Below, piece after piece: positions 33,859 to 49,031 of a DNA stretch of 64,000 bases. Each line of letters starts with the position of its first letter. Positions within the stretch are counted from its first letter, which is position 1. The notes below the pieces were generated by a model. That model saw only the letters and a program-made list of their open reading frames with translations, was not told the DNA's origin and did no database searches. Source of the DNA: an uncultured Anaerolineales bacterium. GTDB taxonomy: Bacteria > Chloroflexota > Anaerolineae > Epilineales > Epilineaceae. The position numbers were made by a program, and so were the translations under genes. The stretch is from NCBI GenBank assembly GCA_964651245.1, contig CAZYVI010000010.1, positions 93,182 to 157,181 on the forward strand, given 5' to 3'.

Positions 33859-34761
33859 CTAACCCCCCACCCGGTCGCGCGTCCGGCCGCGGCGGGCGCG
33901 CTTCTCGAGGAACTCGATGATGGCGCTGGCGACGTCGACGCCGCTGGCGGCCTCGATCCCCTCGAGGCCGGGCGACGAGTTGACCTCGATGACGAGCGGC
34001 CCGTGGTTGCTGCGCAACAGGTCGACGCCGGCCACGTTCAGGCCCAGCGTCTTGCAGGCGCGCACCGCCGTCGTCCGCTCCACCGGGCGCAGGCGGATGG
34101 CGCTGGCCGAGCCGCCGCGGTGGAGGTTGCTGCGGAACTCGCCCTCGGCCGCCTGCCGGCGCATCGCCGCCACCACCCGGCCGCCGACGACGAAGGCGCG
34201 GATGTCGGCGCCGCCGGCTTCGGCGATGAACTCCTGGAGCAGGATGTTGGCGTCGAGCTGTCGGAAGGCGGCGATGACCGACTCGGCCGCGTTGCGCGTC
34301 TCGGCCAGGACGACGCCCATCCCCTGGGTGCCCTCGAGCAGCTTGACGACGAACGGCGGCGAGCCGACGCTGTCGATCAGGCCCTGGATGTCCTTCGTGG
34401 CGTGGGCGAAGCCGGTGACGGGCAGGCCGACCCCCTCGCGGCTCAGCAGCTGCAGGCTGCGCAGCTTGTCGCGCGAGCGCGAGATCGCCTGCGACTCGTT
34501 GGCGGCGAAGACGCCCATCATCTCGAACTGGCGCACCACCGCCGTACCGTAGAACGTGTAGCTGGCGCCGATGCGCGGGATGATCGCGTCGAAGTCGAGC
34601 GTCTTGCCGCCGAGGATGACGGACGGCTTCTGCGACGTGATGTTCATGTAGCAGCGCAGATAGTCCACCACCTGGACCTCGTGGCCGCGCGCCTCGGCGG
34701 CCTCGCGCAGGCGGGAGGTGGAGTAGAGCGAGGCGCGGCGCGACAGGATGCCGATCTTCAC
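33859..34761 (-). CDS. rimK: ribosomal protein S6 modification protein RimK (alpha-L-glutamate ligase, ATP-grasp)
   Basis: Collinear match to recalled E. coli RimK: [91 protein letters not shown] start with GGAGAA 6 nt upstream. Confidence 0.9.
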
Positions 34762-35377: not shown

Positions 35378-38227
35378 TCAGGTAGGCGGCGCCGTGGCCA
35401 GCGCGACCGCGTCGTCGGCCGACAACGCCTCGCCCTCGGCCACGGCGGCCGCGGCGGCGTCGGCGCCGAGGGCGGCGACGACGGACGCTGTGTCGGCATC
35501 GCACTTGGGCACCTCGCGCGGCGTCAGGTGGGCGCCGATCCGATGCCGCAGACCGGCTGCGGCGCCGAACAGCCGCGCCGCCGCGATCGGGTTGCCCTCC
35601 GCCAGCGCCAGCCGGCCCAGCGGCGGCAGGACGCGCGACAACCCGCGCGGGTCGCCGGCGTCGAGGCGCAGCCGCGCCGCGGCGCCGAGCTCGGCGCGGG
35701 CGGCGGCCAGGTCGCCTTGGGCCAGCCGGATGTCGCCGCGGGTGTGGTGGATCGTGGCCAGCGTCCAGATGTCCTCGACGGCTTCGGCCAGCGGCCGCGC
35801 CTCGTCGAGCCAGGCCTCGGCGGCCGCCAGGTCGCGGGCGTCGGCGTCGATCCCCGCCAGGTTGATCAGCGTCGCCGCCATGCCCTCGCGGTCGTCGAGT
35901 TCGCGCTGGATGGCCAGGGCGGCGGCGAAGTGGTCCCGCGCTTCGGCCATGTCGCCGCGCTCGGCGGTGACGATGCCCAGACCGTGCAGCACGCCGGCCT
36001 CGGCGTAGCGGTCGCCCAGGCGCCGGGCGACGACCAGGTTGAGGCGCGCCGCATCGGCCGCGGCGTCGAGGTCGCCTTCGTCGACCGCCACGAGGCCGAG
36101 GTTGTGGACGATCCGCAGCGCCAGCGCGTCGTCGCCGCAGGCCTCGGCCAGCGCCCGGGCCTCGCCGAGGGCGGCGCGGGCGGCGGCGAAGTCGCCGCGC
36201 AGCCACGTCAGGACGCCGAGGCCGTTCATCGCCCGCGCGCGGGCGTTGGAGGCGCGGCCGGCGGCCGGGTTGGACAGGGCCCGGCGCAGGTAGGCTTGGC
36301 CTTCCTGGAGGTGGCCCCGCAGGTACCAGTAGCGCCAGAGGTCGGCGGCCATCGCCACCGCGGCGTCGGCCTGTCCGCGGGCGATGAGGTGGTCGAGGGC
36401 GGCGCGCAGGTTGGCGTGCTCGGCTGCCAGACGCTCGAGCCAGAGCGCCTGCTCGCCACCGACGACGTGCTGCCGGCCGGCATCGGCCATCGCCGCCAGC
36501 GCCGCGGCGTGCCGGTCGGCCACCGCCTCGGCCTCGCCGGCCGCGGCGAGCAGGTCGGCGGCGTACTCGATGACGACCTGGAACAGCGTGAACCGGGCGG
36601 AATCGCCCGCGGGCGCCGGCTGGACCAGGCTCATGTCGACGAGCGCCGTCAGCGACGTGAAGACGTCGAGCGGACTGGTCTCGGGGTCGACCGGGGCGGC
36701 GCAGATGGACTCGGCCAGCTCGATCGTCCAGCCGCCGCGGAAGACGGCCAGGCGGCGGAACAGCCGGCGCTCGTCGGGCCCGAGCAGGGCGTGGCTCCAG
36801 TCGAGGGTGGCGGCCAACGTCTGCTGCCGCGCCGGCAGGTCGCGCCGCGCCCCGCCGAGCTCGGCCAGCCGGCCTTCGAGGCGCGCCAGCAGCGCGGCCG
36901 GCGGCAGCATGCGCACCCGGGCCGCGGCCAGCTCGATCGCCAGCGGCACGCCGTCGAGACGGCGACAGATCGCCTCGACGGCCGCCGCGTTGTCGGCGGT
37001 GAGCGCGAAGTCGGCGTCGGTGGCGCGGGCGCGATCGACGAACAGCATCACGGCCGGGCTGGCGGCGACGGCGGCCACGGCATCGGCGTCGAGCCCGCGG
37101 GCGCTGCCGGCGGCGGCGTCGGGCAGGCGGTCGAGGTCGTCGAGGTCGTCGTCCGCTGCCGGCAGCGCCAGCGGGCCGAGGGCCACCTCGTGCTCGCCGC
37201 GCACCCGCAGCGGGGCGCGGCTGGTGACGATCAGCCGCAGCGACGGGCAGGCTTCGAGCAACGCGGCGAGGTCGGGGCCGACCGCCACGATCTGCTCGAG
37301 GTTGTCGAGCACCAGCAGCGTGCGGCGCTCGGCCAGGCGCGCCGTGAGCACCTCGGCCAGCGGCGTGCTGCCGCCCTCGGCGACGCCGAGCGCGGCCGCC
37401 AGGGCCGGCAGGACGAGGGCTGGATCGTCGATCGCGGCCAGCGGCACGAAGAAGGCGCCGTCGGGGAAGTCGTCGAGGGCCTCGGCGGCCAGCTGCAGCG
37501 CCAGCCGCGACTTGCCGATGCCGCCCGGTCCGGTCAGCGTCACAAGCCGGGCGTCGGGGCGGTCGAGGAGGGCGTGGACCTCGGCGACCTCGGCGGCGCG
37601 GTCGATGAGCGGCGTCAGCGCCTGCGGCAGGTTGTGGGGGTGGGCGTCGAGCGTCTTCAGCGCCGGGAACGCCGCCGGCAGGTCATCCACGACCGCTTGG
37701 TGGACCTCCTCCGGCGCCAGCAGGTCGCGCAGCCGGTGCGCGCCGAGCGACTGCAGCGCCACGCCCGAGGGCAGGTGGTCGCGCACCAGCAGCGCCACCG
37801 CCTGGCTGAGCAGGATCTGGCCGCCGTAGCCGGCCGCCATGAGCCGCGCCAGACGGTTGAGGCACGGCGCCACGTAGTCGCCGCGATGCGGTGCGGCCTC
37901 GCCGGCGTGGACCGCCATCCGCACCGCCAGCGGCCCGTCGGGCCCCCAGTCCGCCGTCGCCAGGGCGCGCTGGGCGTCGACGGCCGCGGCGAGGGCGTCG
38001 GGGGCGGTGTGGAACGCGGCCTGGACGGCGTCGCCGACGCGCTTGAACCAGACGCCGCCGTGCGCGGCGATCGCGCGCTCGACGATCGCGTCGTGCCGGG
38101 CCAGGGCGGCGCGCATGGCCGCGGCGTCGCGCTCCCAGCGGGCCGTGCTGCCCTGGATGTCGGTGAACAGGAAGGCGACGGTGCCGGTGGGCCAGGCGGG
38201 GGCGGCGTCGCCGGGCCGGGCGGTCAG
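35378..38227 (-). CDS. class III adenylate/guanylate cyclase domain fused to an NB-ARC (STAND) NTPase and a long TPR array; no HTH; start codon uncertain
   Basis: Cyclase motifs [44 protein letters not shown] motifs [39 protein letters not shown]. More than ten TPR-like repeats follow. No in-frame ATG or GTG lies upstream of the cyclase domain; only a CTG at 38225-38227, which overlaps the upstream gene's stop. Confidence 0.75.
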
Positions 38228-38790
38228 CGGACGAGCTCCGCCGCCAGCCCGACCGCCAGCAGTCCCAGGCCGAGCAGGACGAACAGCGACGCCTGGTTGA
38301 AGGCACGCAGCTTGGCGTTCGTGATCACGGCGTTGGCGACGATCTGGCCGGCCAGCGCGACGTGCAGCGGGTGGTCGGCCGGCGCGTAGCCCGTGGCGCC
38401 GCCGTAGCGGGCGGCGACCTCGGCGGCGAGCTCGTCGGGCGTGTAGGCCGCCAGGTGGCCGCTGTAGAACAGGTTGTCGTGCGGCTCGCCGCGGCGGGGG
38501 CGCGACGGCCGCAGCCGCGGCGGGCCGTGCGGCCGGAACGACCACACCGCGGTGGCCAGCGCCGCCAGGAACGCCAGCTCGGCGGCGCCGAACGCGGCCA
38601 CCGCCGGCGCCGGCATGTTGTCGGCGCCGCGCAGCAGGCTGATCATCGCCGCGTTCGCCGTGCCCGTCAGGGCGGAGACGGCCAGGTTCTTGGCCTCGGC
38701 GAACCGCAGCCAGGCGTCGACGCGGTCGAGGATGTCGGCCAGGAGGTCGCCGGTCGGGCCGGCGTCGGCGGCCGGCGCGCGGGCGGTCAT
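38224..38790 (-). CDS. hypothetical membrane protein (188 aa; hydrophobic segments plus a C-terminal TM anchor)
   Basis: MTARAPAADAGPTGDLLADILDRVDAWLRFAEAKN..., hydrophobic stretches, then the C-terminal SLFVLLGLGLLAVGLAAELV. Its ATG overlaps the upstream stop as ATGA at 38787-38790, and its stop overlaps the cyclase CTG. Confidence 0.5.
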   Translation of the reverse strand: MTARAPAADAGPTGDLLADILDRVDAWLRFAEAKNLAVSALTGTANAAMISLLRGADNMPAPAVAAFGAAELAFLAALATAVWSFRPHGPPRLRPSRPRRGEPHDNLFYSGHLAAYTPDELAAEVAARYGGATGYAPADHPLHVALAGQIVANAVITNAKLRAFNQASLFVLLGLGLLAVGLAAELVR

Positions 38791-39218
38791 GCCGCCGGCC
38801 AGAACCGCGTGACGAGCTCGTCGACGATCGGGACGAGCAGCACCGTCGTGGCCAGGATGGCCGGCGTCACCCCTTCGTCGAGGCCGAACAGGTCGCCGCC
38901 GGCCGAGGTGACGCTGACGGCCCAGCCGACGTAGGCCACGCCCGCCAACGCGTAGAAGTACCACGGCCCGCGGGTCTGCTGCTCGCGCAGCCGCGTCGCC
39001 AGCAGGTAGAGGACGGTGCCGACGAGGCCGATGCCGAAGACCGCCCAGCGCCAGGCGGCGGCGCTGTCCGGCAGGTTGGCGTACGTCGGCACGTAGAACG
39101 CCAGCACCTCGGCCGGGACGTACTTCGTCAGCTTGCTCGGCAGCGTGTCGGCCTCGCCGCCGGCGTCGGCGGCGCGCACGCGCTGGCTGTCGGGGGCGTA
39201 GACGATGGCGCGGGGCAT
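38787..39218 (-). CDS. hypothetical small membrane protein (143 aa, 3 TM helices)
   Basis: MPRAIVYAPDSQ... then WRWAVFGIGLVGTVLYLL, PWYFYALAGVAYVGWAV, VTPAILATTVLLVPIV. Strong RBS: GAGGAGG 5 nt upstream of the ATG at 39216-39218. Confidence 0.55.
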   Translation of the reverse strand: MPRAIVYAPDSQRVRAADAGGEADTLPSKLTKYVPAEVLAFYVPTYANLPDSAAAWRWAVFGIGLVGTVLYLLATRLREQQTRGPWYFYALAGVAYVGWAVSVTSAGGDLFGLDEGVTPAILATTVLLVPIVDELVTRFWPAA

Positions 39219-39353
39219 CGGGTCCTCCTCGGGGCGAACGGAGAAGCGCGGGCCAGTGTAGGCCGGCGGGGGGCGGGTCGCAAGGGCGGCGACGGGGGTG
39301 GTATCATCGACCGGCTCGACCGACACCGTCCCCACCAACGAGGAGCCCCTGCC

Positions 39354-41267
39354 ATGCCCACGACCCCGTGGCGCCGCTGGGCGCCGCACGCGCCGCTGGC
39401 GGCGATCGTGGCGCTCTACCTGGCGACGGCCGCCGCCTACGCCTGGCGGGTGCCGATCCTCGAGGGCGCCGACGAGCACGGGCACGCGCTGGTGGTCCAG
39501 CACGTCAGCATCCACGGCAGCCCGCCGCGCATCGGCACGCTCTGGGAGGCCGTCCAGCCGCCGCTCTACTACGCCGTCGCCGCAGCGGTCCACGGCGCGG
39601 CCGGCGGCGGCCGGATCGTGCCGTCCACGCTCCGGCTCAACGACGGCTTCCGGTTCGACGACCCCAGCTCGGCCGACGCGTTCGATCCGCGCAGCTATGC
39701 GCCGGCCGACGCCCGCCCGGCGCGCCGCCTGCGCGCCCTGTCGATGCTCTTCGGCGCGCTGACGCTCGGCTGCGTGTACGCGACGGCCCTGGCGGTCTCG
39801 CGCGGGCGACGGTTGGTGGCATGGTCGGCCGCCGCGCTCCCGGCGCTCACGCCGATGTACGCCCACCACCACGCCGTGATCACGAACGACAGCCTGGCAA
39901 CGCTGTGGTGCGCCGTGGTCGTCTGGCTGCTGGCGCGGCACGTCATGGCGGGCGCGGCGGCGCCGGGAGCCGGCGGCGGAGTCGGGGGCAGCGGGGGCAC
40001 CGCGCGGCAGGCGGTGGGAATGGGCATCGCCGCCGGCCTCGGCATCTGGACCAAGCTCACGATGGCCCCGGTGGCCGCCGCCGCCGCCGTCCTGCTGGTG
40101 TGGGGGCCGGGGCCGGCCGCGGCGCGCCGGCGCGCCGCCGTCCGATTCGCGCTGACGGCAGGGGCCGTGGCCAGCCCGTGGCTGATCCTGAACACCTGGC
40201 ACTACGGTGATCCGCTCGCCCGCGCCGCGATGCAGCAGGCGCACGCCGCGCTGGCGGTGCAGCGCACGCCGTTCGCGTTGATCGGCGACGGCGGGTTCTG
40301 GCGGATGGTCTTCGAGTCCTACTGGGGTCGGCTGGGGTCGATGACGGTGCCGCTGCGCGCCGAGGACTACGCCCTGTTCCGCCTCGTAGCGGCCGTCGGC
40401 GCGCTTGGCCTGCCCGTCGCCATGGGGCGCCGCGTCATCGACCGGCGGGCCGCCGGCGCGCTGGGGCTCGTGGTCGGCCTGACCTGGGTCGCCTTCGTGG
40501 CCCACAACCTGGGGTTGTCGGCGCCGCAAGGCCGGCTGCTGTTCCCGGCGCTGCCGGCGCTGTCGGTGCTGTGGGCGGCCGGCTGGACCGCCGGGCTCGA
40601 TGGGGCGGTCGACGCCGCCCGCCATGCCGCGCGGCGCGCCGGTGTGGCCGTCGGGCCGCGCCGGCGCTGGGCGGGCGCGATCGGCGCGGCGGCATCCGCC
40701 GGGCTCGTCGCGGCGCTCGGGCTGGTCAACCTCCAGACGCTGGCCGGCCCCGTGCAGCGCGCCTTCCACGACGCGCCGGCGGCGCGCGCGGCGCAGCTCG
40801 CCGCGCCCGCGCCGCGCCGGCCGGCCGCCGCCTCCGCCCCCGCCGCGCCCGACGACGGCGCCCGGCCCGTCGCGTCGCGCGCGATCCGTGCCGCGGCGCG
40901 ACCCGACCGGCCGCCGCCCGCGCCGCCTTCGACGCTGGCCCGTGCCGATCGGCCCGCTGCGGCCGGCACGCTCCGCACGGCGCCCGGCGCCGCCGAGGAC
41001 GCCAGCGTGGCCGTTGCCGCGCCCGCTGCCGCGGAGTCGCGCGATCGGCGCCCGCGGCGGCCCGCGGCCAAGCCCCGGCCGCCGTTCGAGCCCGACGCGG
41101 ACGACGCGGCGGCCGACGACCGGGCCGCGCTCGAGCGGCGACGCCACGTCCCGAACGGGGGCGAGCTGCCGCCGATCGACGCCGCGCCGTGGGCGGCGCC
41201 GACGCCGCAGGCGGGCGGCGCGCAGCAGCCGATGCCCGTGCCGCCGGTGTCGCCGCCCTCGGCCTGA
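39354..41267 (+). CDS. glycosyltransferase family 39 / PMT_2-like (ArnT/PMT-type GT-C) membrane protein with a Pro/Ala-rich C-terminal tail
   Basis: N-terminal loop EGADEHGH and QPPLYYAV as in PMT/ArnT-like enzymes, with 10 or more TM helices. AGGAG lies 8 nt upstream of the ATG. Convergent with the YfhO-like gene, stops 3 nt apart. Confidence 0.55.
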   Translation: MPTTPWRRWAPHAPLAAIVALYLATAAAYAWRVPILEGADEHGHALVVQHVSIHGSPPRIGTLWEAVQPPLYYAVAAAVHGAAGGGRIVPSTLRLNDGFRFDDPSSADAFDPRSYAPADARPARRLRALSMLFGALTLGCVYATALAVSRGRRLVAWSAAALPALTPMYAHHHAVITNDSLATLWCAVVVWLLARHVMAGAAAPGAGGGVGGSGGTARQAVGMGIAAGLGIWTKLTMAPVAAAAAVLLVWGPGPAAARRRAAVRFALTAGAVASPWLILNTWHYGDPLARAAMQQAHAALAVQRTPFALIGDGGFWRMVFESYWGRLGSMTVPLRAEDYALFRLVAAVGALGLPVAMGRRVIDRRAAGALGLVVGLTWVAFVAHNLGLSAPQGRLLFPALPALSVLWAAGWTAGLDGAVDAARHAARRAGVAVGPRRRWAGAIGAAASAGLVAALGLVNLQTLAGPVQRAFHDAPAARAAQLAAPAPRRPAAASAPAAPDDGARPVASRAIRAAARPDRPPPAPPSTLARADRPAAAGTLRTAPGAAEDASVAVAAPAAAESRDRRPRRPAAKPRPPFEPDADDAAADDRAALERRRHVPNGGELPPIDAAPWAAPTPQAGGAQQPMPVPPVSPPSA

Positions 41268-41270
41268 CGA

Positions 41271-43814
41271 TCAGCCGCGCGCCGCGCGCTCCGGCCGCGC
41301 CGGGGACGGGCGCGCCGCCCCGCCGCCTACGGCCAGCCACCCGCCCACCGCCCACCACGCCGCGATCGCCAGCGCCGCGGCAGCCGCCAGCGCCCGGCCC
41401 AGCCGCCAGCCGGCGGGCTCGTAGCGCAGGACGATGCGGTGCCGCCCGGCCGGCGCCGGCACGGCGCGGAACGTGAAGTCGGCGCGCAGCACCGGGGCCG
41501 GCGCGTCGTCGACGGTCGCGCGCCAGTCGGGGTGCCAGGTGTCGGACAGCAGCACGAACGCCGGCGCGCCGAGGTCGACGTCGACGACGATGTGGTCGGG
41601 CTCGTAGGCGGCGACCGACGCGGCGCCCTGAACGGCTGGGCCGGCGCTGTCCGGCGCCGGGTCGACGGCGCGCACGGCGTCGGCGGCCGCCGGTTCGCGC
41701 GCGAGGTCGGCGGCGGCGAAGTGCACCACGGCCGCGGGGGCGGCCGGGTCGCGCAGCGCGTCGAACACCGCGGCGTCGTCGGCCCGTACGGCGGCGTCGG
41801 CGACGAGCCGGAGCCGCGGCAGGGCGCCGTCGTTGCGCCAGACGTCGACGGCCGGGTCGGCGTCGTAGGCGAGGGTCCAGCGGCCGCGGTCGCTGGGGGC
41901 GGCGCCCTTGTCGGTGACGCACCAGCCGACGCCGAAGCGGTTGTAGAGCGGCGAGCCGCGGTGCTCCAGCCCGTCCATGCTGAAGCTGTAGGTGCCCAGC
42001 CGCGACGGGTTGTAGACGCCGCCGAGGCCGTAGAGCCCCCAGAGCTGCGGCGCCGCCGGCGGCCAGGCGCCGGCCGCCACGTCGATGCGCGCCGGCAGGT
42101 CGGGCGCGCCGGGGGCGAACGACGCGCCGCGCTCGGCCAGCCACCGCACCGCCGGCGACGGCCGGAACCCGGCGGCCGGGTCGGCGCCGTCGACCTCGAC
42201 GCCGGCGCCGAGGGCGACGAGGTCGACCGCGGTGGCCAGCGCCAGCAGCGGGGCGGCGGCGCGTGCCAGCGGAATCGCCCATGGGCGGGGAGCGCGCACG
42301 GCGGTCGTCGGACCCGCCGTGGCCGGCATCGCCGTCGCGGCTGCGGTCATGGTCGCCATCGATGTCGATCTCGACGTTGATGGCGATGGCGACGTCGATG
42401 TCGACGTCGATGGCGGTGACGATGGCGATGGCGGTGACGATGTCGCGGCGGCGGTCGCCGCACGCCCGCTCCAGCGGGCCGCGGCCGACGCCGCCACGGC
42501 CTGCGCCCCCGCCGCCGCCAGCCACGCCAGCGCCAGGTCGGTCACCAGGAGGTAGCGCGCCGGCGCCCGGAACGGCAGGTCGAGCGGGGCGATGAGCCAG
42601 CTGTGGACCGGCGTCGCCGGCCCGAGCGCGATCAGCAGCGACACGGCGGCCAGCGAGGCGAAGACGGCGACGTCGGCGCCGTCGGTCGAGCCGAACGCGT
42701 AGTCGCCCCGGCGGCCGCGGCCCACCGTGAGGTCGCCGCCGGCACGTCGCCGCCGCCGGCTGGGCCACGCGGCCGCGACGGCGAACAAGGCCAGGCCCAG
42801 CGGCGCGAGGCCGACATAGCCGACCTCGACCCGGTCCCAGTCGCCGCGGAAGTCCGCCGCCCCCCGCCCGTACCACCACGGCGCCACAAGGCCGACGAGC
42901 GCCCGCGGCGGCAGGCTGTACTGCACCGCCGTGGCGTCGTCGTAGGCGGCGCGCACGGTGTGGGGCCGCAGCGCGACCGTCGGCAGCAGCGCCGGCGCCG
43001 CCAGCGCGAACGCCAGCGCGCCGGCGACGGCGACGTGAACGAGCGGCCCGGCGCGGCGGCCGAGCGCGGCCCGCCCGGCGGCGACCCAGCCGACGGCCGC
43101 CGCGCCGAGCCACGTGGCCTGGGCGTGGCCCGCCAGGGCGCCCATCGCCAGCGCCACCGCCGCCAGCGCCACCCAGGCGCCGCGCCGGACGAGCGCGGGC
43201 GCGCGGGGTGCGAGGCGGCGGTCCGATCCGCCGCCGACGGTGTCGGCGCGGCAGAGGCCGAGCAGCGCCAGCGGCAGCCAGCTGGCGGCGGCGTTGAAGT
43301 TGAGGTTGCCGAGGTGGGTGACGAAGACGTCGTTGAACATCCAGGCCAGCGCGCCCAGCAGCGCCGGGGCGGGCGCGAAGCCGCCGCCGTCGCCGCCGCG
43401 GCGCCACAGCCGCAGGCAGGCGTACATCGCCGCCCCGGCCAGCCAGGCGTGGCCGATGACGACCCACTGCAGGTGGCGGTAGTCGAAGGCGGGCGCGAGC
43501 GCGTAGAGCAGCCGCAAGGGCGGGTAGAGCAGGCCCGACTGGTTGTCGGCCAGCAGCGGCGCGCCGGCGTAGAGGTGCGGGTTCCACAGCGGCAGCTCGC
43601 CGGCGGCCAACCGTTCGGCGGCGAAGCGGTACATCGGGTAGAGGAACGACGCCAGGTCGCCGCCGCCGCGCGGCAGCCAGTAGCCGCCGAACAGGACGGG
43701 GGCGAAGAAGGCGGCGCAGGCGGCGGTGAGGGCGGCGAGGGCGGCGACGTCGCCGGCCGGCCACCGTTTCGGAGTCGGCGCCGAGGTCGGCGGCGGTGTC
43801 GCCGGCGCGCTCAT
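41271..43814 (-). CDS. YfhO-like polytopic membrane protein with a large extracytoplasmic C-terminal domain and an internal Ser/Thr/Pro-rich linker
   Basis: N-terminal multi-TM domain (LWNPHLYAGAPLLADNQSGLLYP...). STP-rich linker TSSPPSPSSPPSTSTSTSPSPSTS. The ATG overlaps the upstream gene's stop as ATGA (43811-43814). The longer listed ORF (to 46202) is a frame artefact. Confidence 0.5.
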   Translation of the reverse strand: MSAPATPPPTSAPTPKRWPAGDVAALAALTAACAAFFAPVLFGGYWLPRGGGDLASFLYPMYRFAAERLAAGELPLWNPHLYAGAPLLADNQSGLLYPPLRLLYALAPAFDYRHLQWVVIGHAWLAGAAMYACLRLWRRGGDGGGFAPAPALLGALAWMFNDVFVTHLGNLNFNAAASWLPLALLGLCRADTVGGGSDRRLAPRAPALVRRGAWVALAAVALAMGALAGHAQATWLGAAAVGWVAAGRAALGRRAGPLVHVAVAGALAFALAAPALLPTVALRPHTVRAAYDDATAVQYSLPPRALVGLVAPWWYGRGAADFRGDWDRVEVGYVGLAPLGLALFAVAAAWPSRRRRRAGGDLTVGRGRRGDYAFGSTDGADVAVFASLAAVSLLIALGPATPVHSWLIAPLDLPFRAPARYLLVTDLALAWLAAAGAQAVAASAAARWSGRAATAAATSSPPSPSSPPSTSTSTSPSPSTSRSTSMATMTAAATAMPATAGPTTAVRAPRPWAIPLARAAAPLLALATAVDLVALGAGVEVDGADPAAGFRPSPAVRWLAERGASFAPGAPDLPARIDVAAGAWPPAAPQLWGLYGLGGVYNPSRLGTYSFSMDGLEHRGSPLYNRFGVGWCVTDKGAAPSDRGRWTLAYDADPAVDVWRNDGALPRLRLVADAAVRADDAAVFDALRDPAAPAAVVHFAAADLAREPAAADAVRAVDPAPDSAGPAVQGAASVAAYEPDHIVVDVDLGAPAFVLLSDTWHPDWRATVDDAPAPVLRADFTFRAVPAPAGRHRIVLRYEPAGWRLGRALAAAAALAIAAWWAVGGWLAVGGGAARPSPARPERAARG
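42361..42444. repeat. tandem hexanucleotide repeat (14 x GAYGKC) inside the YfhO-like CDS; it encodes the Ser/Thr/Pro linker
   Basis: gatgtc gatctc gacgtt gatggc gatggc gacgtc gatgtc gacgtc gatggc ggtgac gatggc gatggc ggtgac gatgtc. Confidence 0.6.
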
Positions 43815-46366
43815 CGCACCGTCACCGTGCCGACCGTCACCGCGTCGTCGCTCCAGCGCGCACCCGCGGCGTCCACGGCCGGCAGGCGCGGGGTGCCGTC
43901 GGTCGGGCGGTAGAGGCCGAGGCGCACCGTCAGCCGGTCGCCCGGCCGGACCGGCGACGGCCACGCCCAGGCCACGCGCGACGGGATGCGGTCGCCCGGC
44001 CGCCAGCGCGACGTCGGGTAGCGGTGGTCGCGCGAGGGCGGGCCGTCGAGCGCGAGCGGCTCGGCCTCGCCGTCGCGCGTCACGTGCACGAACAGCTGCA
44101 GGTCCTCGCCCGGCGCCTGGAGCGCCCGCCAGACGAGGTCGAGCGTGCCGCTCGCCGCCGGGGCGTTCATGTCGAGCGCCAGCGGCAGCGCCGGCCGCTG
44201 CGGCACGCCCGCGGCGTCGAACGCCCGCACGTCGAGCGCGATGGCGTCGCCGAAGCGGGCCGACGGCGGCCCGGCCGCGGCCATGCGCGCCTCGTCGCGG
44301 CGTGGCTGCGGCGCCGCCGCGTCGATCGCGACGTCGACCGCCGCGCTGTCCGGCCCGCCCGGTGCGGCCGGCGCGGACGGCCAGCTTTCCTGGGCGTTCA
44401 TGTCGTAGATGTCGACGACCAGCCGGGCGAGCGTCGACGGGCGGTAGCCGTCCCAGTCGGGCCGGGTCGCCAGGGCCGGCGCCCGGATCGTCCGGACGTC
44501 TTCGACGAGCAGGCCCGCACTGCGGTCGAGCGTGGCGAACGGGGCGTTGCCGCGGCCGGGGTAGCTCAGGTCGGGCGGGCTGGCGACGGTGCGCAGCGCC
44601 GTCGGGTCGTCGGCCGCGGCCACCGCCTGGTCCCAGCGCAGCGCGACGTAGCCGTCGCGCAGCGGGCCGTCGAATTCGGACGTCGGGTGGTCGAGGATGC
44701 GCCAGTAGAGGGTGACGTCGACGTTGCGCCCCTCGACGACGCGGGCCGGCGCCCGGATCGCCGCGAGCTCGACCCGGGCGTGGGTGCCGTCGAACGCGAC
44801 CCCGACCGGCACGGCGTCCGGTGGCAGCGTGCGCTCGACGATGAACCGCGGCCGGGCGTAGGCCGGCCGGATCGCGCCGAGGAGCGCGCCTGCGGACAGG
44901 CCGGCCATCGCGACCGCGACGATGGCCGCGAGCGCGCCATCGCCAAGCCGCCGCGGCGGCAGCAGCGCGCGCCAGCCCAGGACGAGGAGGACGGCCGGGG
45001 CGGCGACGGCCGGGAAGAGCAGCCGGCCGTGGGCGCCCTTGGCGATGAGCATCCAGCGCAGCAGGGCGGCGAAGGCGACGAGCCACCACACGACGAGCAG
45101 CGCGATGTCGGGCCTCGGCCACGACGGCCGCCGCCATGCGCGCCGCCCCCACGCCCGCACGCCGCCGGCCAGCGCGGCAAGGGCGGCGGCGTCGACGAGC
45201 GCGTAGACCCAGCGCGGCAGCAGGATCGTGAACCAGCCGAAGACGCCCCAGCTCGAGAGCCAGAGGCCGTAGAGCTCGGCCGGCAGGCCGCGCACGAACC
45301 GCGCGGCGCTGACGTCGCGCTGCAGCTCGGGCGGCAGCATGAGGTTCAGGCCGGTGAGCGAGCCGTAGAGCCGCAGGTTGCGCAGGTACCACCAGCCGGC
45401 CAGCACGACGCAGGCGGCGACGACGGCGGCCGCGGTGGCGACGAGGCGGCGAGCATCGGCGGCGGCGCCCGCACCGCGCCGCCGCCACGCTGCCCACAGG
45501 AGCGCCCCGACGACGAACGCGGCCAGCGCCAGCCCGGAGAGCTTGGCCAACGGGGCCAGGCCGACGGAGACGGCGAGGGCGGCGGCGTCGCGGCGGCGGG
45601 CGCGGGCGCGCCCGCTCGCGGCGCCGATGCTCGGGCCATCGCCACCGCCATCGCCATCGCCACCGCCGCCGACGTCGTCGTCGCGCGCGCCCACGACCCG
45701 CAGCAGCAGCGCCAGCGACACCGCGGCGACGGCGTTCATCGCGTTGTCGTTGGACACCGTCGACGAGAGGTGGATGAACTGCGGGTTGAGGCCGACGAGC
45801 GCCAGGGCGGCGACGGCGAGCCAGCGGCGGGGGGCGAGGACGCGGGCGAAGATCGACCATAGGGCGACGAGGGTGGCGAGGGCGAGGAGGGTCGAGGCGA
45901 GGCGCATCGCGCGGACGGCGGCGAGGTAGCGGTCGTCGCGGCGGGACGCGCTGGCGACGAACCGGTTCTCGTTGCCGCGCACCTCGGGTCGCCCCATCGA
46001 GTTCTGGTGGTTGTACGTCAGCGCGTCCCAGCCGGGTTCGCAGTGCCCGCGGAAGGTCTCGCCGGCGGGATCGAAGCCGTTGCCGTCGAGCCGGACGAGC
46101 GGGCTCACCAGGGCGTAGTACAGCGGCGGCTGGCTGCCCTCTTGCTCCCACAGCCCCCGGTCCTCGGCGCGCGCCTGCTGCACCGGCAGCGTGCCGGTGC
46201 AATAGAGGTGCTTGGCGAAGAAGTAGTGCGAGCTCTCGTCGGCGCCCTCGAACGGCGGCACGACGGCGTTGTAGGCGAGGGCCAGCGCGGCGAAGGCGGC
46301 GATGATCGCGCCAGCGGCGGCCCTCGCTGCGCGTTGGGTCGAGGGCGCTGGCCGCGTGACGGTCAT
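43811..46366 (-). CDS. glycosyltransferase family 39 / PMT_2-like membrane protein (second copy) with a C-terminal extracytoplasmic domain
   Basis: PFEGADESSHYFFAKH and QPPLYYALV motifs, multiple TM helices, and an acidic Gly/Asp low-complexity insert DDDVGGGGDGDGGGDG. Start taken at the in-frame Met-15 of ORF 43811..46408. Its stop overlaps the YfhO-like start. Confidence 0.55.
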   Translation of the reverse strand: MTVTRPAPSTQRAARAAAGAIIAAFAALALAYNAVVPPFEGADESSHYFFAKHLYCTGTLPVQQARAEDRGLWEQEGSQPPLYYALVSPLVRLDGNGFDPAGETFRGHCEPGWDALTYNHQNSMGRPEVRGNENRFVASASRRDDRYLAAVRAMRLASTLLALATLVALWSIFARVLAPRRWLAVAALALVGLNPQFIHLSSTVSNDNAMNAVAAVSLALLLRVVGARDDDVGGGGDGDGGGDGPSIGAASGRARARRRDAAALAVSVGLAPLAKLSGLALAAFVVGALLWAAWRRRGAGAAADARRLVATAAAVVAACVVLAGWWYLRNLRLYGSLTGLNLMLPPELQRDVSAARFVRGLPAELYGLWLSSWGVFGWFTILLPRWVYALVDAAALAALAGGVRAWGRRAWRRPSWPRPDIALLVVWWLVAFAALLRWMLIAKGAHGRLLFPAVAAPAVLLVLGWRALLPPRRLGDGALAAIVAVAMAGLSAGALLGAIRPAYARPRFIVERTLPPDAVPVGVAFDGTHARVELAAIRAPARVVEGRNVDVTLYWRILDHPTSEFDGPLRDGYVALRWDQAVAAADDPTALRTVASPPDLSYPGRGNAPFATLDRSAGLLVEDVRTIRAPALATRPDWDGYRPSTLARLVVDIYDMNAQESWPSAPAAPGGPDSAAVDVAIDAAAPQPRRDEARMAAAGPPSARFGDAIALDVRAFDAAGVPQRPALPLALDMNAPAASGTLDLVWRALQAPGEDLQLFVHVTRDGEAEPLALDGPPSRDHRYPTSRWRPGDRIPSRVAWAWPSPVRPGDRLTVRLGLYRPTDGTPRLPAVDAAGARWSDDAVTVGTVTVR

Positions 46367-46826: not shown

Positions 46827-48893
46827 TTAGATCGGCAGCTGGGTCCCGAGCTCGACGACCTGCGCCGGCGGCAGGCCGTAGTAGTACGTCGCGCTCTGGG
46901 CGTTGCGCGACAGCCAGGCGAAGAGGTGCTCGCGCCAGACCGCCATGCCCGGGCGGCGGGTGGCGATGATGCGCTCGCGGCTCAGGAAGTACGTCACCGA
47001 CCGTGGGTCGAGCGACCAGCCGGGCGCTTCGACCGCCGCCAGGCCGCGCGGCACGTCGGGCTGCTCCATGAAGCCCGACCGGATCGTGACCCGCCAGACG
47101 TCGTCGCGCAGGCGCTCGACGGCGGTGCGCGCGCCGACCGGCAGGTAGGGCACGTCGGCGGTGTCCACATGGACGACGACGATCTGGCGATGCAGGACCT
47201 GGTTGTGCCGCAGGTTCTGGATGAGCGCCGGCGGCGTGCCGCGGGCGTTGGAGTAGAGGAACACCGCGGTGCCCGGTACCCGGGCGACGGCCTTGGCGTC
47301 GGCCTCGGCAAGGAACGTCCGCAGCGGCTGGGTGCTGGCGGCCAGCCGGATCGCCAGCAGCTTGCGGCCGGTGTGCCAGGTCGTCAGGATCGCGAACACG
47401 CCGCCGGCCACCACCAGCGGGAACCAGCCGCCGTGGAACAGCTTGAGGAGGTTGGCGCCGAAGAAGGCCAGGTCGATGACCAGGAACACCGCGCACAGCG
47501 CCAGCGCCCGGCCCTGAGACCAGCCCCAGCGCTCGCGCAGCACGGCGTAGAACAGGGCCGTCGTGATCGCCATCGTGCTCGTGACGGCGATGCCGTAGGC
47601 GGCGGCCAGGTTGCTCGACGTCCGGAAGCCGAGGACGACGGCGATGCACATGGCCAGTAGCGCCCAGTTGATGGCGCCGATGTAGATCTGCCCGCGCGCC
47701 TCGGCCGAGGTGTGGCGGATGTCGAGCCGCGGGCTGTAGCCCAGCTGGATGGCCTGCATCGTCAGCGAGTAGGCGCCGGAGATGAGGGCCTGCGACGCGA
47801 TCACCGTGGCGCAGGTTGCCAGCATCACCAGCGGCGCCAGCGCCCAGCCGGGCGCCAGCTGGTAGAACGGGTGCGCCGCCGCCGCCGCCGGATCGACGAG
47901 CAGCAGCGCGCCCTGGCCGAAGTAGTTCAGCAGCAGGCACGGCAGCACCAGCGCGAACCAGGCCAGCCGGATCGGACGCGCCCCGAAGTGCCCCATGTCG
48001 GCGTACAGCGCTTCGCCGCCGGTCACCACCAGGAAGACCGAGCCCAGGATCACGAAGCCGTGGAAGCCGTTGGCGGCGAAGAACCGCGCGCCGTGCAGCG
48101 GGTTGACGGCCGCCAGGACGGCCGGCGCGTCGGCGATGGCGGCGACGCCGAGCAGGGCCAGGACGGCGAACCAGAGCAGCATGATCGGTCCGAACACCGC
48201 CCCGACGCTGGCCGTGCCGCGGTGCTGGAACGCGAACAGGCCGATCAGGATGCCGACGGTCAACGCCAGCAGCAGGTTGTGGTCGACGGACGGCGCCAGG
48301 ACCGCCAGCCCCTCGACCGCCGACAGCACGCTGATGGCCGGGGTGATGACGCCGTCGCCGTAGAGCAGCGCCGCGCCGAACAGCCCCAGCAGGATGAGCC
48401 GCCCCCGCCAGCGGTGGGCCTTGTCGTGGCGCGGGCTGATCAGGGCGATGAGGGCCAGGATGCCGCCCTCGCCCTGGTTGTCGGCCCGCAGGATGAAGCC
48501 GACGTACTTGATCGAGATGACAATGACGAGCGACCAGACGATGAGCGACAGCACGCCGAGCACGTTGGCCGCTGTGGCCGCCACGCCGTGGGCCGGGTTG
48601 AAGCACTCCCGCAGCGCGTAGAGCGGGCTGGTGCCGATATCGCCGAAGACGATGCCCAGCGCCGCCAGCGCCAGCGGCCAAACCGGGCCGTGGTGCGGGC
48701 GGTGGCCGGCGGCCGTGGGCGTCGCGCCGCCAGCGTCGGCCGCCTGGTCGTCGGCCGCCGGCGCGGCGTCGTTCGACGCGTCCGACGGCGCCGCCGTCCC
48801 GGCGGACGGCGCCGTCACGTCGTCCGGCGCGGGCGGGGCGGCGGGGGCATCGGGCGGGGCAGCGGGCTGGGCAGCGGGCGGGGCGGCGGCCAT
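46827..48893 (-). CDS. kup: KUP/HAK/KT potassium uptake transporter with an Ala/Pro-rich N-terminal extension
   Basis: GIVFGDIGTSPLYAL, ADNQGEGGILAL, 12 TM helices, and a C-terminal cytoplasmic domain. GGAG lies 8 nt upstream of the ATG. Confidence 0.85.
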   Translation of the reverse strand: MAAAPPAAQPAAPPDAPAAPPAPDDVTAPSAGTAAPSDASNDAAPAADDQAADAGGATPTAAGHRPHHGPVWPLALAALGIVFGDIGTSPLYALRECFNPAHGVAATAANVLGVLSLIVWSLVIVISIKYVGFILRADNQGEGGILALIALISPRHDKAHRWRGRLILLGLFGAALLYGDGVITPAISVLSAVEGLAVLAPSVDHNLLLALTVGILIGLFAFQHRGTASVGAVFGPIMLLWFAVLALLGVAAIADAPAVLAAVNPLHGARFFAANGFHGFVILGSVFLVVTGGEALYADMGHFGARPIRLAWFALVLPCLLLNYFGQGALLLVDPAAAAAHPFYQLAPGWALAPLVMLATCATVIASQALISGAYSLTMQAIQLGYSPRLDIRHTSAEARGQIYIGAINWALLAMCIAVVLGFRTSSNLAAAYGIAVTSTMAITTALFYAVLRERWGWSQGRALALCAVFLVIDLAFFGANLLKLFHGGWFPLVVAGGVFAILTTWHTGRKLLAIRLAASTQPLRTFLAEADAKAVARVPGTAVFLYSNARGTPPALIQNLRHNQVLHRQIVVVHVDTADVPYLPVGARTAVERLRDDVWRVTIRSGFMEQPDVPRGLAAVEAPGWSLDPRSVTYFLSRERIIATRRPGMAVWREHLFAWLSRNAQSATYYYGLPPAQVVELGTQLPI

Positions 48894-49031
48894 CGGGTGC
48901 GCTCCGGGACAGGTCGGGCGGCATCGTCGGCGCTCGGGCGCCGGCGGCACGATGGTAGCCAGGCGGCCCGGGAACGCAATCCCCGACGCCGATGCGATGG
49001 GCCGGAAGGACACCGGATGTGCATGGCAGGC

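Follow-up and report, generated by a model that had tools for sequence, protein, structure and literature searches.

Glycosyltransferases of the GT-C type exert their activity on the outer face of the membrane. The YfhO protein of Bacillus subtilis has 13 predicted transmembrane (TM) helices (PMC5836110), and streptococcal enzymes of the YfhO family glycosylate Ser/Thr-rich disordered regions; the known glycosylated regions of this kind are extracytoplasmic (PMC12041528).

Here we describe a gene for a YfhO-like protein located in a 64-kb stretch of Chloroflexota DNA, the whole of which was analysed and is referred to below as the window. The gene carries an in-frame tandem repeat encoding a run of Ser, Thr and Pro (S/T/P) residues. 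According to the original prediction, made from the same DNA, this run is a linker prone to O-glycosylation, variable in length and possibly modified by adjacent enzymes of the PMT type. Our verdict differs: we regard the repeat as an ordinary loop insertion made through a simple-sequence repeat.

A YfhO-family gene and its GT-C neighbours

The following genes form the immediate context of the repeat:

41271-43814, minus strand: YfhO-family GT-C glycosyltransferase gene, 847 aa (Pfam YfhO, homologs, AF2 model, Foldseek)
43811-46366, minus strand: PMT-like (GT39-like) GT-C gene, upstream of the YfhO gene and translationally coupled to it (Pfam PMT, orthologs)
39354-41267, plus strand: convergent PMT_2-like GT-C gene, its stop 3 nt from the YfhO stop (Pfam PMT_2)

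The label 'YfhO-like' given in the original prediction holds, if weakly. The Pfam YfhO profile covers the C-terminal part of the protein only and, at 28.8 bits, barely exceeds the cut-off of 28.5, but PF09586 is recorded on 117 of the 120 listed homologs, out of 371 detected at E <= 1e-5. With the AF2 model (pLDDT 88.2, pTM 0.89), Foldseek retrieved AftD, AglB, ArnT, PglB and STT3 (E 1e-7 to 1e-3) and also Pmt1/2; the modelled fold is that of GT-C enzymes. In all 121 sequences compared, two aspartates are invariant: D53, in the GGGD of the first outer loop, and D90. By family membership, the protein is a putative sugar transferase that would use polyprenyl phosphate as donor and an acceptor on the outer side. 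A PDB sequence search with the family profile gave no meaningful match, NCBIfam assigned none of the three GT-C proteins (YfhO-like, PMT-like and PMT_2-like) to a family and an exact look-up of the window's YfhO protein found it not on record. A scan of 20 neighbouring genes of the window revealed no gene for a GT-A or GtrA partner.

The start and stop codons of the PMT-like and YfhO genes overlap in an ATGA (43814-43811), and another ATGA (46366-46363) links the PMT-like gene with the GNAT gene upstream of it; both were read directly. The upstream PMT-like protein scored 19.2 bits with Pfam PMT (cut-off 22.7) and PF02366 is recorded for its orthologs, and the convergent protein scored 26.6 bits with PMT_2, for a cut-off of 26.1. 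Acidic DE motifs, as read from the sequences only, occur in the upstream protein (PPFEGADESSHY, directly after TM1) and in the convergent one (PILEGADEHGH). The earlier description of the neighbours as O-mannosyltransferase-like stands insofar as these are GT-C proteins resembling PMT; the label itself is weak, with the upstream gene below the Pfam cut-off, and for this gene we retain 'PMT-like', its identity as a protein mannosyltransferase being putative. All three genes recur, in the same convergent arrangement, in an Ardenticatenales relative (L005); two further relatives (L001 and L006) have the PMT-YfhO pair.

The hexanucleotide tract

42360-42443, minus strand: in-frame degenerate hexanucleotide repeat of 28 codons, TSSPPSPSSPPSTSTSTSPSPSTSRSTS, aa 458-485 of the YfhO-like protein (Tandem Repeats Finder, lag-6 identity, codon bias)

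Altogether, 14 in-register hexamers occupy positions 42361-42444. The wording 'fourteen consecutive GAYGKC' used for them previously is right in number and place and slightly generous as to the unit, because four hexamers deviate by one or two bases (GATCTC, GACGTT and, twice, GGTGAC), the exact GAYGKC being found in 10/14. Tandem Repeats Finder delimited the tract as 42359-42445, with a period of 6, 14.5 copies, 74% matches and a score of 76, and scored it also with a period of 30 (score 100). Its lag-6 self-identity of 0.73-0.74 ranks first among all positions of the window (z ~5.3); rank two (0.72) belongs to an insert in the PMT-like neighbour gene, and the next locus reaches 0.60. The longest perfect runs amount to 2.3 copies of 6 nt, 1.9 copies of 12 nt and 1.9 copies of 18 nt. 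The tract is quasi-palindromic, with an mRNA hairpin z-score of -3.46.

Translation of the minus strand yields TSSPPSPSSPPSTSTSTSPSPSTS, corresponding to aa 458-481 of the 847-aa ORF (42372-42443) and followed by RSTS. This translation agrees exactly with the original prediction, as does the character of the segment, which is in frame, consists purely of S/T/P and is predicted by AF2 to be disordered: residues 459-487 have no secondary structure in the model, and pLDDT is below 50 over residues 469-506.

Membrane topology of the repeat-bearing loop

42279-42476, minus strand: loop predicted to be cytoplasmic, connecting TM10 with TM11 (aa 447-512) and bordered by Arg-rich flanks (AF2, helix parity, charge, loop lengths)

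TM helices were taken from the AF2 model; a crude Kyte-Doolittle caller missed several of them. The model comprises 11 TM helices, a β-rich domain of 266 aa and a final helix, TM12. Inside loops (144 aa) contain 20 K/R and 5 D/E, and outside loops (412 aa) contain 33 K/R and 46 D/E, the S/T/P loop itself being flanked by ARWSGR and VRAPRPW..LAR. Across the 120 listed homologs, the standard deviation of loop length is 0-0.7 aa for predicted outside loops and 1.2-14 aa for predicted inside loops. Helix parity counted from both termini, charge distribution under the positive-inside rule and the conservation of loop lengths agree in predicting a cytoplasmic position for the S/T/P loop, opposite the membrane face at which the flanking PMT-like enzymes, as GT-C proteins, would act.

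The same site is variable in membrane architecture. In most homologs the insertion site is occupied by a TM hairpin, flanked on one side by the TM helix after the conserved PFRAPAR loop and on the other by the last TM helix ahead of the large outer domain; at least one TM-like segment occurs there in 106 of the 120 listed homologs. Measured from anchor to anchor in the alignment (GAQ... to ...PLLAL), the loops of near relatives are 17, 23 and 83 aa long. Other homologs carry low-complexity inserts of their own in other predicted inside loops, e.g., P0006 and P0002.

Age and origin of the insertion

42252-42443, minus strand: lineage-specific insertion of 192 nt (64 codons), made up of the repeat and an A/T/M/P-rich tail (MATMTAAATAMPATAGPTTAVRAPRPWAIPL), boundaries approximate (DNA and protein alignments)

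The host is a relative of Ardenticatenales (Chloroflexota) with very GC-rich DNA (76% GC). Alignment at the DNA level revealed that L001 and L002, orthologs with ~78% identity, lack the 192-nt insertion, and the S/T/P content of 24/24 residues compares with 16/24 at most in each of the 120 listed homologs. The codons of the tract are atypical: 12 of 28 end in A, versus 64 of 4209 (1.5%) in five neighbouring genes (P ~2e-13). Outside the tract, TCA is used for none of 163 Ser codons, CCA for 6 of 305 Pro codons and ACA for 2 of 163 Thr codons. Since its synonymous positions show no adjustment to the codon bias of the genome, the tract appears to be of recent origin. A window-wide search for a source of the insert's remaining, non-repeat portion gave nothing convincing, the match at 33918 being ordinary coding sequence.

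Slippage had been invoked earlier, and as an origin it is plausible, given the hierarchy of 6-, 12- and 18-nt units, the atypical codons and the absence from orthologs; local duplication is a plausible source as well. The history of the site may be pictured as follows. In the ancestor of the clade a TM hairpin would have been lost, so that a short cytoplasmic loop rich in Arg remained, which reads GRRRWRA in the nearest orthologs, and 192 nt would then have been gained at this shortened loop, solely in the present lineage. The core of the insert, a quasi-palindromic GAYGKC hexamer, would have been amplified in steps of 6, 12 and 18 nt, most likely via slippage during replication or via local duplication. 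In the frame of the gene, it would have given rise to the 28-residue S/T/P run inside a disordered loop of 66 residues on the cytoplasmic face, most likely a flexible connector from TM10 to TM11 that is functionally near-neutral.

Alternative explanations

Overall, we consider it likely that the S/T/P tract is a young insertion that arose from a simple-sequence repeat within an indel-tolerant loop, where it acts as a near-neutral connector and not as a PMT substrate. An extracytoplasmic, O-glycosylation-prone run of variable length, acted on by adjacent GT-C enzymes of the PMT-like or YfhO-like kind, would be consistent with a segment that is 24/24 S/T/P and predicted disordered, with the clustering of three GT-C genes, two of them translationally coupled, and with the streptococcal precedent of YfhO-family activity on Ser/Thr-rich disordered regions (PMC12041528). 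It is nevertheless highly improbable, as known substrates are extracytoplasmic (PMC12041528), while three independent predicted grounds place the loop in the cytoplasm (PMC5836110), and the tract occurs in one lineage only, being absent from orthologs that keep the gene cluster. Because it is unique to this lineage while relatives keep the trio or the pair, the tract cannot belong to what is conserved in the function of the cluster. The linker had been suggested as a PMT substrate; parity, charge and loop-length conservation, which predict a cytoplasmic loop, speak against this part of the original prediction. A role in sugar attachment is unlikely for the modelled loop, and a young, harmless insertion is most likely. 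The neutrality of the insert is an assumption on our part, and the 28-residue S/T/P run could be a region of regulatory phosphorylation. A cytoplasmic disordered region through which phosphorylation by Hanks-type kinases or partner binding tunes the glycosyltransferase would agree with the predicted location and disorder of the loop and with its Ser/Thr content (20 of 28 residues). We hold this to be distinctly unlikely, however, as the tract is not conserved (missing from 120/120 listed homologs), its codons are atypical and young-looking, and a scan of neighbouring genes turned up no kinase gene.

Ongoing variation is a separate matter from slippage as an origin. That the tract is an actively hypervariable repeat of the contingency type, with slipped-strand mispairing altering linker length between cells or strains, is suggested by a tandem repeat with hairpin potential and by a loop length that changes from each near relative to the next (17, 23 and 83 aa). 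We consider it unlikely: the repeat is degenerate (74% matches), perfect hexamers follow one another for 2.3 copies at most and the long perfect or near-perfect run of units expected of contingency repeats is not present in the YfhO tract. Moreover, the six-base unit preserves the frame and, as a multiple of three, does not allow slippage to switch the gene on and off. Searches for alleles of the same species returned only a 31%-identical Pseudomonadales match among genome contigs and a 37%-identical fragment among metagenome contigs, and a protein search with the linker and its flanks gave 8000 candidates, all of them low-complexity matches, of which none scored. Scarcely credible is an artefact of assembly or sequencing, or a pseudogene in which the true frame of the tract is a different one. 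Across the tract, GC3 does reach 1.0 in a second minus-strand frame (DIVTAIAIVTAI...) and falls to 0.57 in the gene's own frame, but both flanks match orthologs in the frame of the gene, there is no stop codon, the insertion measures exactly 64 codons and the other frame would need two compensating frameshifts. We rejected this double-frameshift reading, as the GC3 of 1.0 in the other phase results from the G that is invariant at hexamer positions 1 and 4.

The main value of the young-insertion reading is that of a correction. An S/T/P-rich stretch near PMT-like genes resembles a glycosylation substrate, and topology needs to be checked first; in the present case, predicted topology puts the stretch on the membrane face opposite to that of glycosylation. 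The locus also offers a clean, small example of the evolution of a multi-pass membrane enzyme, in which outer catalytic loops are fixed in length, and the cytoplasmic loops of the YfhO-like enzyme appear to have undergone loss of a TM hairpin and acquisition of young, repeat-derived disordered inserts.

A related inverted repeat in the PMT-like gene

45635-45682, minus strand: GAT/GGC-type repeat encoding DDDVGGGGDGDGGGDG in the upstream PMT-like gene (alignments, lag-6 rank 2)
42402-42442, plus strand: 41-nt segment of the YfhO tract, identical at 37/41 positions to the reverse complement of 45637-45677 (within-window blastn, best non-self match)

A low-complexity insert in the neighbour gene was likewise part of the original prediction; DDDVGGGGDGDGGGDG is indeed encoded there, at 45635-45682, and is lineage-specific, 16 aa of this D/G insert (VGGGGDGDGGGDGPSI) being missing from orthologs in alignments with L001, L005 and L006. 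Each of the two coupled GT-C genes has gained a codon-atypical insert, and the inserts share a super-unit, GGTGRC-GATGGC-GATGGC, that is read as D/G in the PMT-like gene and as S/P/T in the YfhO gene. When the order of hexamers in the tract was shuffled, the 37/41 match was reached in 19 of 2000 trials. The presence of an inverted related repeat in the adjacent gene hints at a process beyond two independent slippage events. We assign a low probability to a templated process, i.e., template switching or gene conversion between quasi-palindromic repeats in the operon, as the maker of both inserts; two independent slippage events are the alternative. If a templated event did occur, one sequence would have produced new disordered protein segments from both strands, and a single repeat could seed different low-complexity peptides on opposite strands. 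The loop that bears the insert in the PMT-like protein looks cytoplasmic when read by eye. An inversion switch operating between the inverted repeats was also considered and seems unlikely: the longest perfect shared run is ~17 nt by eye, and both genes would be disrupted.

Comparison with known systems

Described members of the YfhO family include YfhO of B. subtilis and S. aureus, Lmo1079 of Listeria and streptococcal PgtC2 and PgfM1/2. The Chloroflexota protein shares with them PF09586, the GT-C fold, a multi-TM N-terminal domain and the invariant Asp in the first outer loop, and it resembles the published model of B. subtilis YfhO in carrying its large outer domain between the penultimate and the final TM helix (PMC5836110). 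It differs from the family in lying at the Pfam threshold and in its unique, predicted-cytoplasmic S/T/P insert. Instead of the 13 TM helices predicted for the B. subtilis protein (PMC5836110), it has 11+1, a difference that we ascribe to the probable loss of a TM hairpin in its clade.

The disordered regions of streptococcal PrsA and PBP1a and the S/T/P linkers of actinobacterial Pmt substrates are similar to the YfhO tract in their poly-Ser/Thr(/Pro) composition and disorder, and also in that the tract is situated in a membrane protein and adjoins GT-C genes (PMC12041528). These O-glycosylated regions lie outside the membrane beside folded outer domains, whereas the YfhO tract is predicted to connect helices on the cytoplasmic side and is conserved in no relative.

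Low-complexity insertions derived from microsatellites likewise have a short tandem unit whose length is a multiple of three, lineage-specific distribution, atypical codons and a position in an indel-tolerant surface loop. In contrast to these, the YfhO tract is degenerate and not pure, and it has an inverted related copy in the coupled neighbour gene.

Hexamer repeat in the YfhO-like gene

The hexamer repeat is real and in frame, statistically outstanding but degenerate. It lies inside a minus-strand ORF of 847 aa (43814..41271; third-codon G+C 0.96), and the translation given in the original prediction is exact: 42372-42443 reads TSSPPSPSSPPSTSTSTSPSPSTS in the gene frame (aa 458-481), the tract proper spanning 28 codons (42360-42443) with RSTS at its C-terminal end. 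Fourteen consecutive GAYGKC units had been claimed; fourteen hexamers do stand in register, but only ten fit this consensus and four deviate.

Hexamers of the tract (42361-42444, register of the original prediction)
Hexamers 1-7: GATGTC, GATCTC, GACGTT, GATGGC, GATGGC, GACGTC, GATGTC
Hexamers 8-14: GACGTC, GATGGC, GGTGAC, GATGGC, GATGGC, GGTGAC, GATGTC

In Tandem Repeats Finder, 42359-42445 is scored as a period-6 array (14.5 copies, 74% matches, score 76) and alternatively as one of period 30 (score 100). The G+C content of the window is 76%. Lag-6 self-identity of the tract (0.73-0.74, z ~5.3) is the top value of the 64-kb window, followed by 0.72 for an insert in the neighbouring PMT-like gene (45635-45682), while the next best place reaches only 0.60; this ranking sets a genuine repeat far above the GC-rich background. 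Nested within the tract are stretches of perfect repetition: 2.3 copies of a 6-nt unit, 1.9 of a 12-nt unit and 1.9 of an 18-nt unit. It is also quasi-palindromic, with GTCGAC and GACGTC units, and a long mRNA hairpin is predicted at 42340-42465 (minus strand; -55.7 kcal/mol, z = -3.46), a stability that none of 200 shuffles matched. The nested runs, the quasi-palindrome and the hairpin are compatible with slippage or local duplication as the origin.

Gene neighbourhood

Genes and overlaps around the YfhO-like gene
46366..43811, minus: PMT-like gene, upstream of YfhO; Pfam 19.2 bits, below the cut-off of 22.7
46366-46363 and 43814-43811, minus: ATGA stop/start overlaps chaining the GNAT, PMT-like and YfhO-like genes (chain 46809-41271)
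39354-41267, plus: PMT_2-like gene, convergent with YfhO; 26.6 versus 26.1 bits

The stop codons of the PMT_2-like gene and of YfhO lie 3 nt apart; the PMT_2-like product has a low-complexity, Ala/Pro/Arg-rich C-terminal tail of ~200 aa (40700-41267, plus). The gene past the GNAT gene encodes a Kup potassium transporter (46827-48950, minus) and is no PMT; its N-terminal extension is of low complexity and Ala/Pro/Asp-rich. The order MetH - Kup - PMT - YfhO - PMT_2 - small gene - STAND/TPR - RimB - RimK is common to the window and an Ardenticatenales bin, GCA_020853525.1 (locus L005). The PMT-YfhO pair with its 4-nt overlap was found again in a more distant relative, and the convergent PMT_2-like gene is missing from another relative's locus, L001. 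A scan of 20 neighbouring genes yielded neither a GT-A nor a GtrA partner. A PycTM (Pycsar effector) domain (31.2 bits) occurs in a 188-aa protein (38224-38790, minus) that overlaps a 157-aa membrane protein without a family match (38787-39260, minus), and this pair also follows YfhO in the relatives' loci L001 and L002. Pfam detected no cyclase domain in the adjacent STAND/TPR gene (35378-38116).

Fold of the protein and topology of the loop

The Pfam YfhO match of the protein is barely at threshold (28.8 bits versus 28.5). Its 371 homologs come from Chloroflexota metagenome bins (Ardenticatenales, Anaerolineae), and PF09586 is annotated in 117 of the 120 listed. An AlphaFold2 model from 121 sequences (pLDDT 88.2, pTM 0.89) resembles AftD, AglB, ArnT, PglB, STT3 and Pmt1/2 in Foldseek, so that the fold is GT-C. 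It contains helices at 20-42, 112-135, 148-166, 171-192, 204-228, 231-252, 256-285, 336-358, 376-396, 418-458 and 513-536, followed by a beta-rich domain (537-802) and a final helix (803-831). In the model, residues 459-487 lack secondary structure and pLDDT falls below 50 at 469-506. The disordered Ser/Thr/Pro linker made by a simple repeat, as originally proposed, is upheld.

An invariant GGGD53 lies in the first loop, which in GT-C enzymes is characteristically the outer, catalytic one. With this loop outside, a basic N-terminus and nine further helices, parity would place the chain inside at residue 447. The basic C-terminal tail (+4) in turn suggests that the 266-aa domain is outside and that the chain leaves the cytoplasm through helix 513-536. 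Loops assigned inside hold 20 K/R and 5 D/E in 144 aa, those outside 33 K/R and 46 D/E in 412 aa; the insert lacks acidic residues and lies between ARWSGR and VRAPRPW..LAR. Over the 120 listed homologs (alignment of 121 sequences mapped to 41271-43814), predicted outside loops keep a constant length (sd 0-0.7 aa), whereas every predicted inside loop varies (sd 1.2-14), and some homologs also carry low-complexity inserts in predicted inside loops, e.g., the VDVTPPDATPVDATP repeat of P0006. Parity, charge and conservation together indicate that loop 447-512 is most probably cytoplasmic, and the repeat forms a disordered part of this loop in a YfhO-family GT-C enzyme.

Origin and age of the insertion

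The tract is missing from the nearest orthologs (P0001 and P0002, ~78% identical) and from the next pair (P0003 and P0004, ~64%). In the DNA alignment both near orthologs lack 192 bases (64 codons) that are present in the window, with flanks in frame. At least one TM-like hydrophobic segment occupies the insertion site in 106 of the 120 listed homologs, two being visible in the full alignment; this TM hairpin was lost in the five-member clade of the window and P0001-P0004, as compared with P0005-P0120 (window 42279-42476, aa 447-512). The number of predicted TM helices thereby fell from 13+1 to 11+1 with topology unaltered, since the helices were lost as a pair. The loop measures 17-23 aa in the hairpin-less clade (e.g., AVAAAGRRRWRAADAVG) and 83 aa in the window only. 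The best 24-residue stretch holds at most 16 Ser/Thr/Pro in any listed homolog versus 24 in the window protein.

Codon usage of the tract is atypical: 12 of its 28 codons end in A (TCA x3, CCA x5, ACA x3, AGA x1), as against 64 of 4209 in five neighbouring genes (binomial P ~2e-13), where TCA serves for none of 163 Ser codons. Synonymous positions uncorrected by the strong genome bias point to a tract that arose recently or is still being homogenised. The insertion is lineage-specific and looks young, and it sits where a TM hairpin was lost. An exact look-up of the protein found no record; two scans of sequence collections returned distant relatives only, and a linker-centred search was swamped by low-complexity matches. 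As to the variable length originally envisaged, a classical contingency locus is unlikely, because the repeat is imperfect and its unit in frame.

The low-complexity insert claimed for the neighbouring PMT-like gene is also real (DDDVGGGGDGDGGGDG, 45635-45682). Sixteen of its residues are missing from the L001, L005 and L006 orthologs, and it is flanked by GRARARRRD. It falls between the fourth and fifth TM helices, counted by eye, which would make it probably cytoplasmic too. Outside itself, the YfhO insert finds its best match in the window here, on the opposite strand (37/41 nt; 42402-42442, plus, versus the reverse complement of 45637-45677), a match reached in only 19 of 2000 random orderings with hexamer vocabularies held fixed. 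Both tracts share the order GACGTC-x-GGTGRC-GATGGC-GATGGC-GGTGRC-GATGKC. They may have a common templated origin, one read as Asp/Gly and the other, from the complementary strand in another frame, as Ser/Pro/Thr; they may equally reflect convergence of the same slippage-prone unit.

Proposed glycosylation of the linker

Sugar transfer by GT-C enzymes, PMTs and YfhO-family proteins included, takes place at the outer side of the membrane, so a loop predicted to be cytoplasmic would not be accessible to them. Being absent from the 120 listed relatives, the tract is not part of the conserved function of the PMT-YfhO-PMT_2 cluster. On both points, the proposal that adjacent PMT-like enzymes use the linker as a substrate is not upheld, and glycosylation is disfavoured by the predicted topology. 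The feature is of an ordinary kind: a simple-sequence repeat has given rise to a low-complexity insertion in a loop. The Ser/Thr-rich disordered regions glycosylated in streptococci by PgtC2, a YfhO-family enzyme, are explicitly extracytoplasmic (PMC12041528), whereas the Ser/Thr/Pro loop of the window is predicted to be cytoplasmic.
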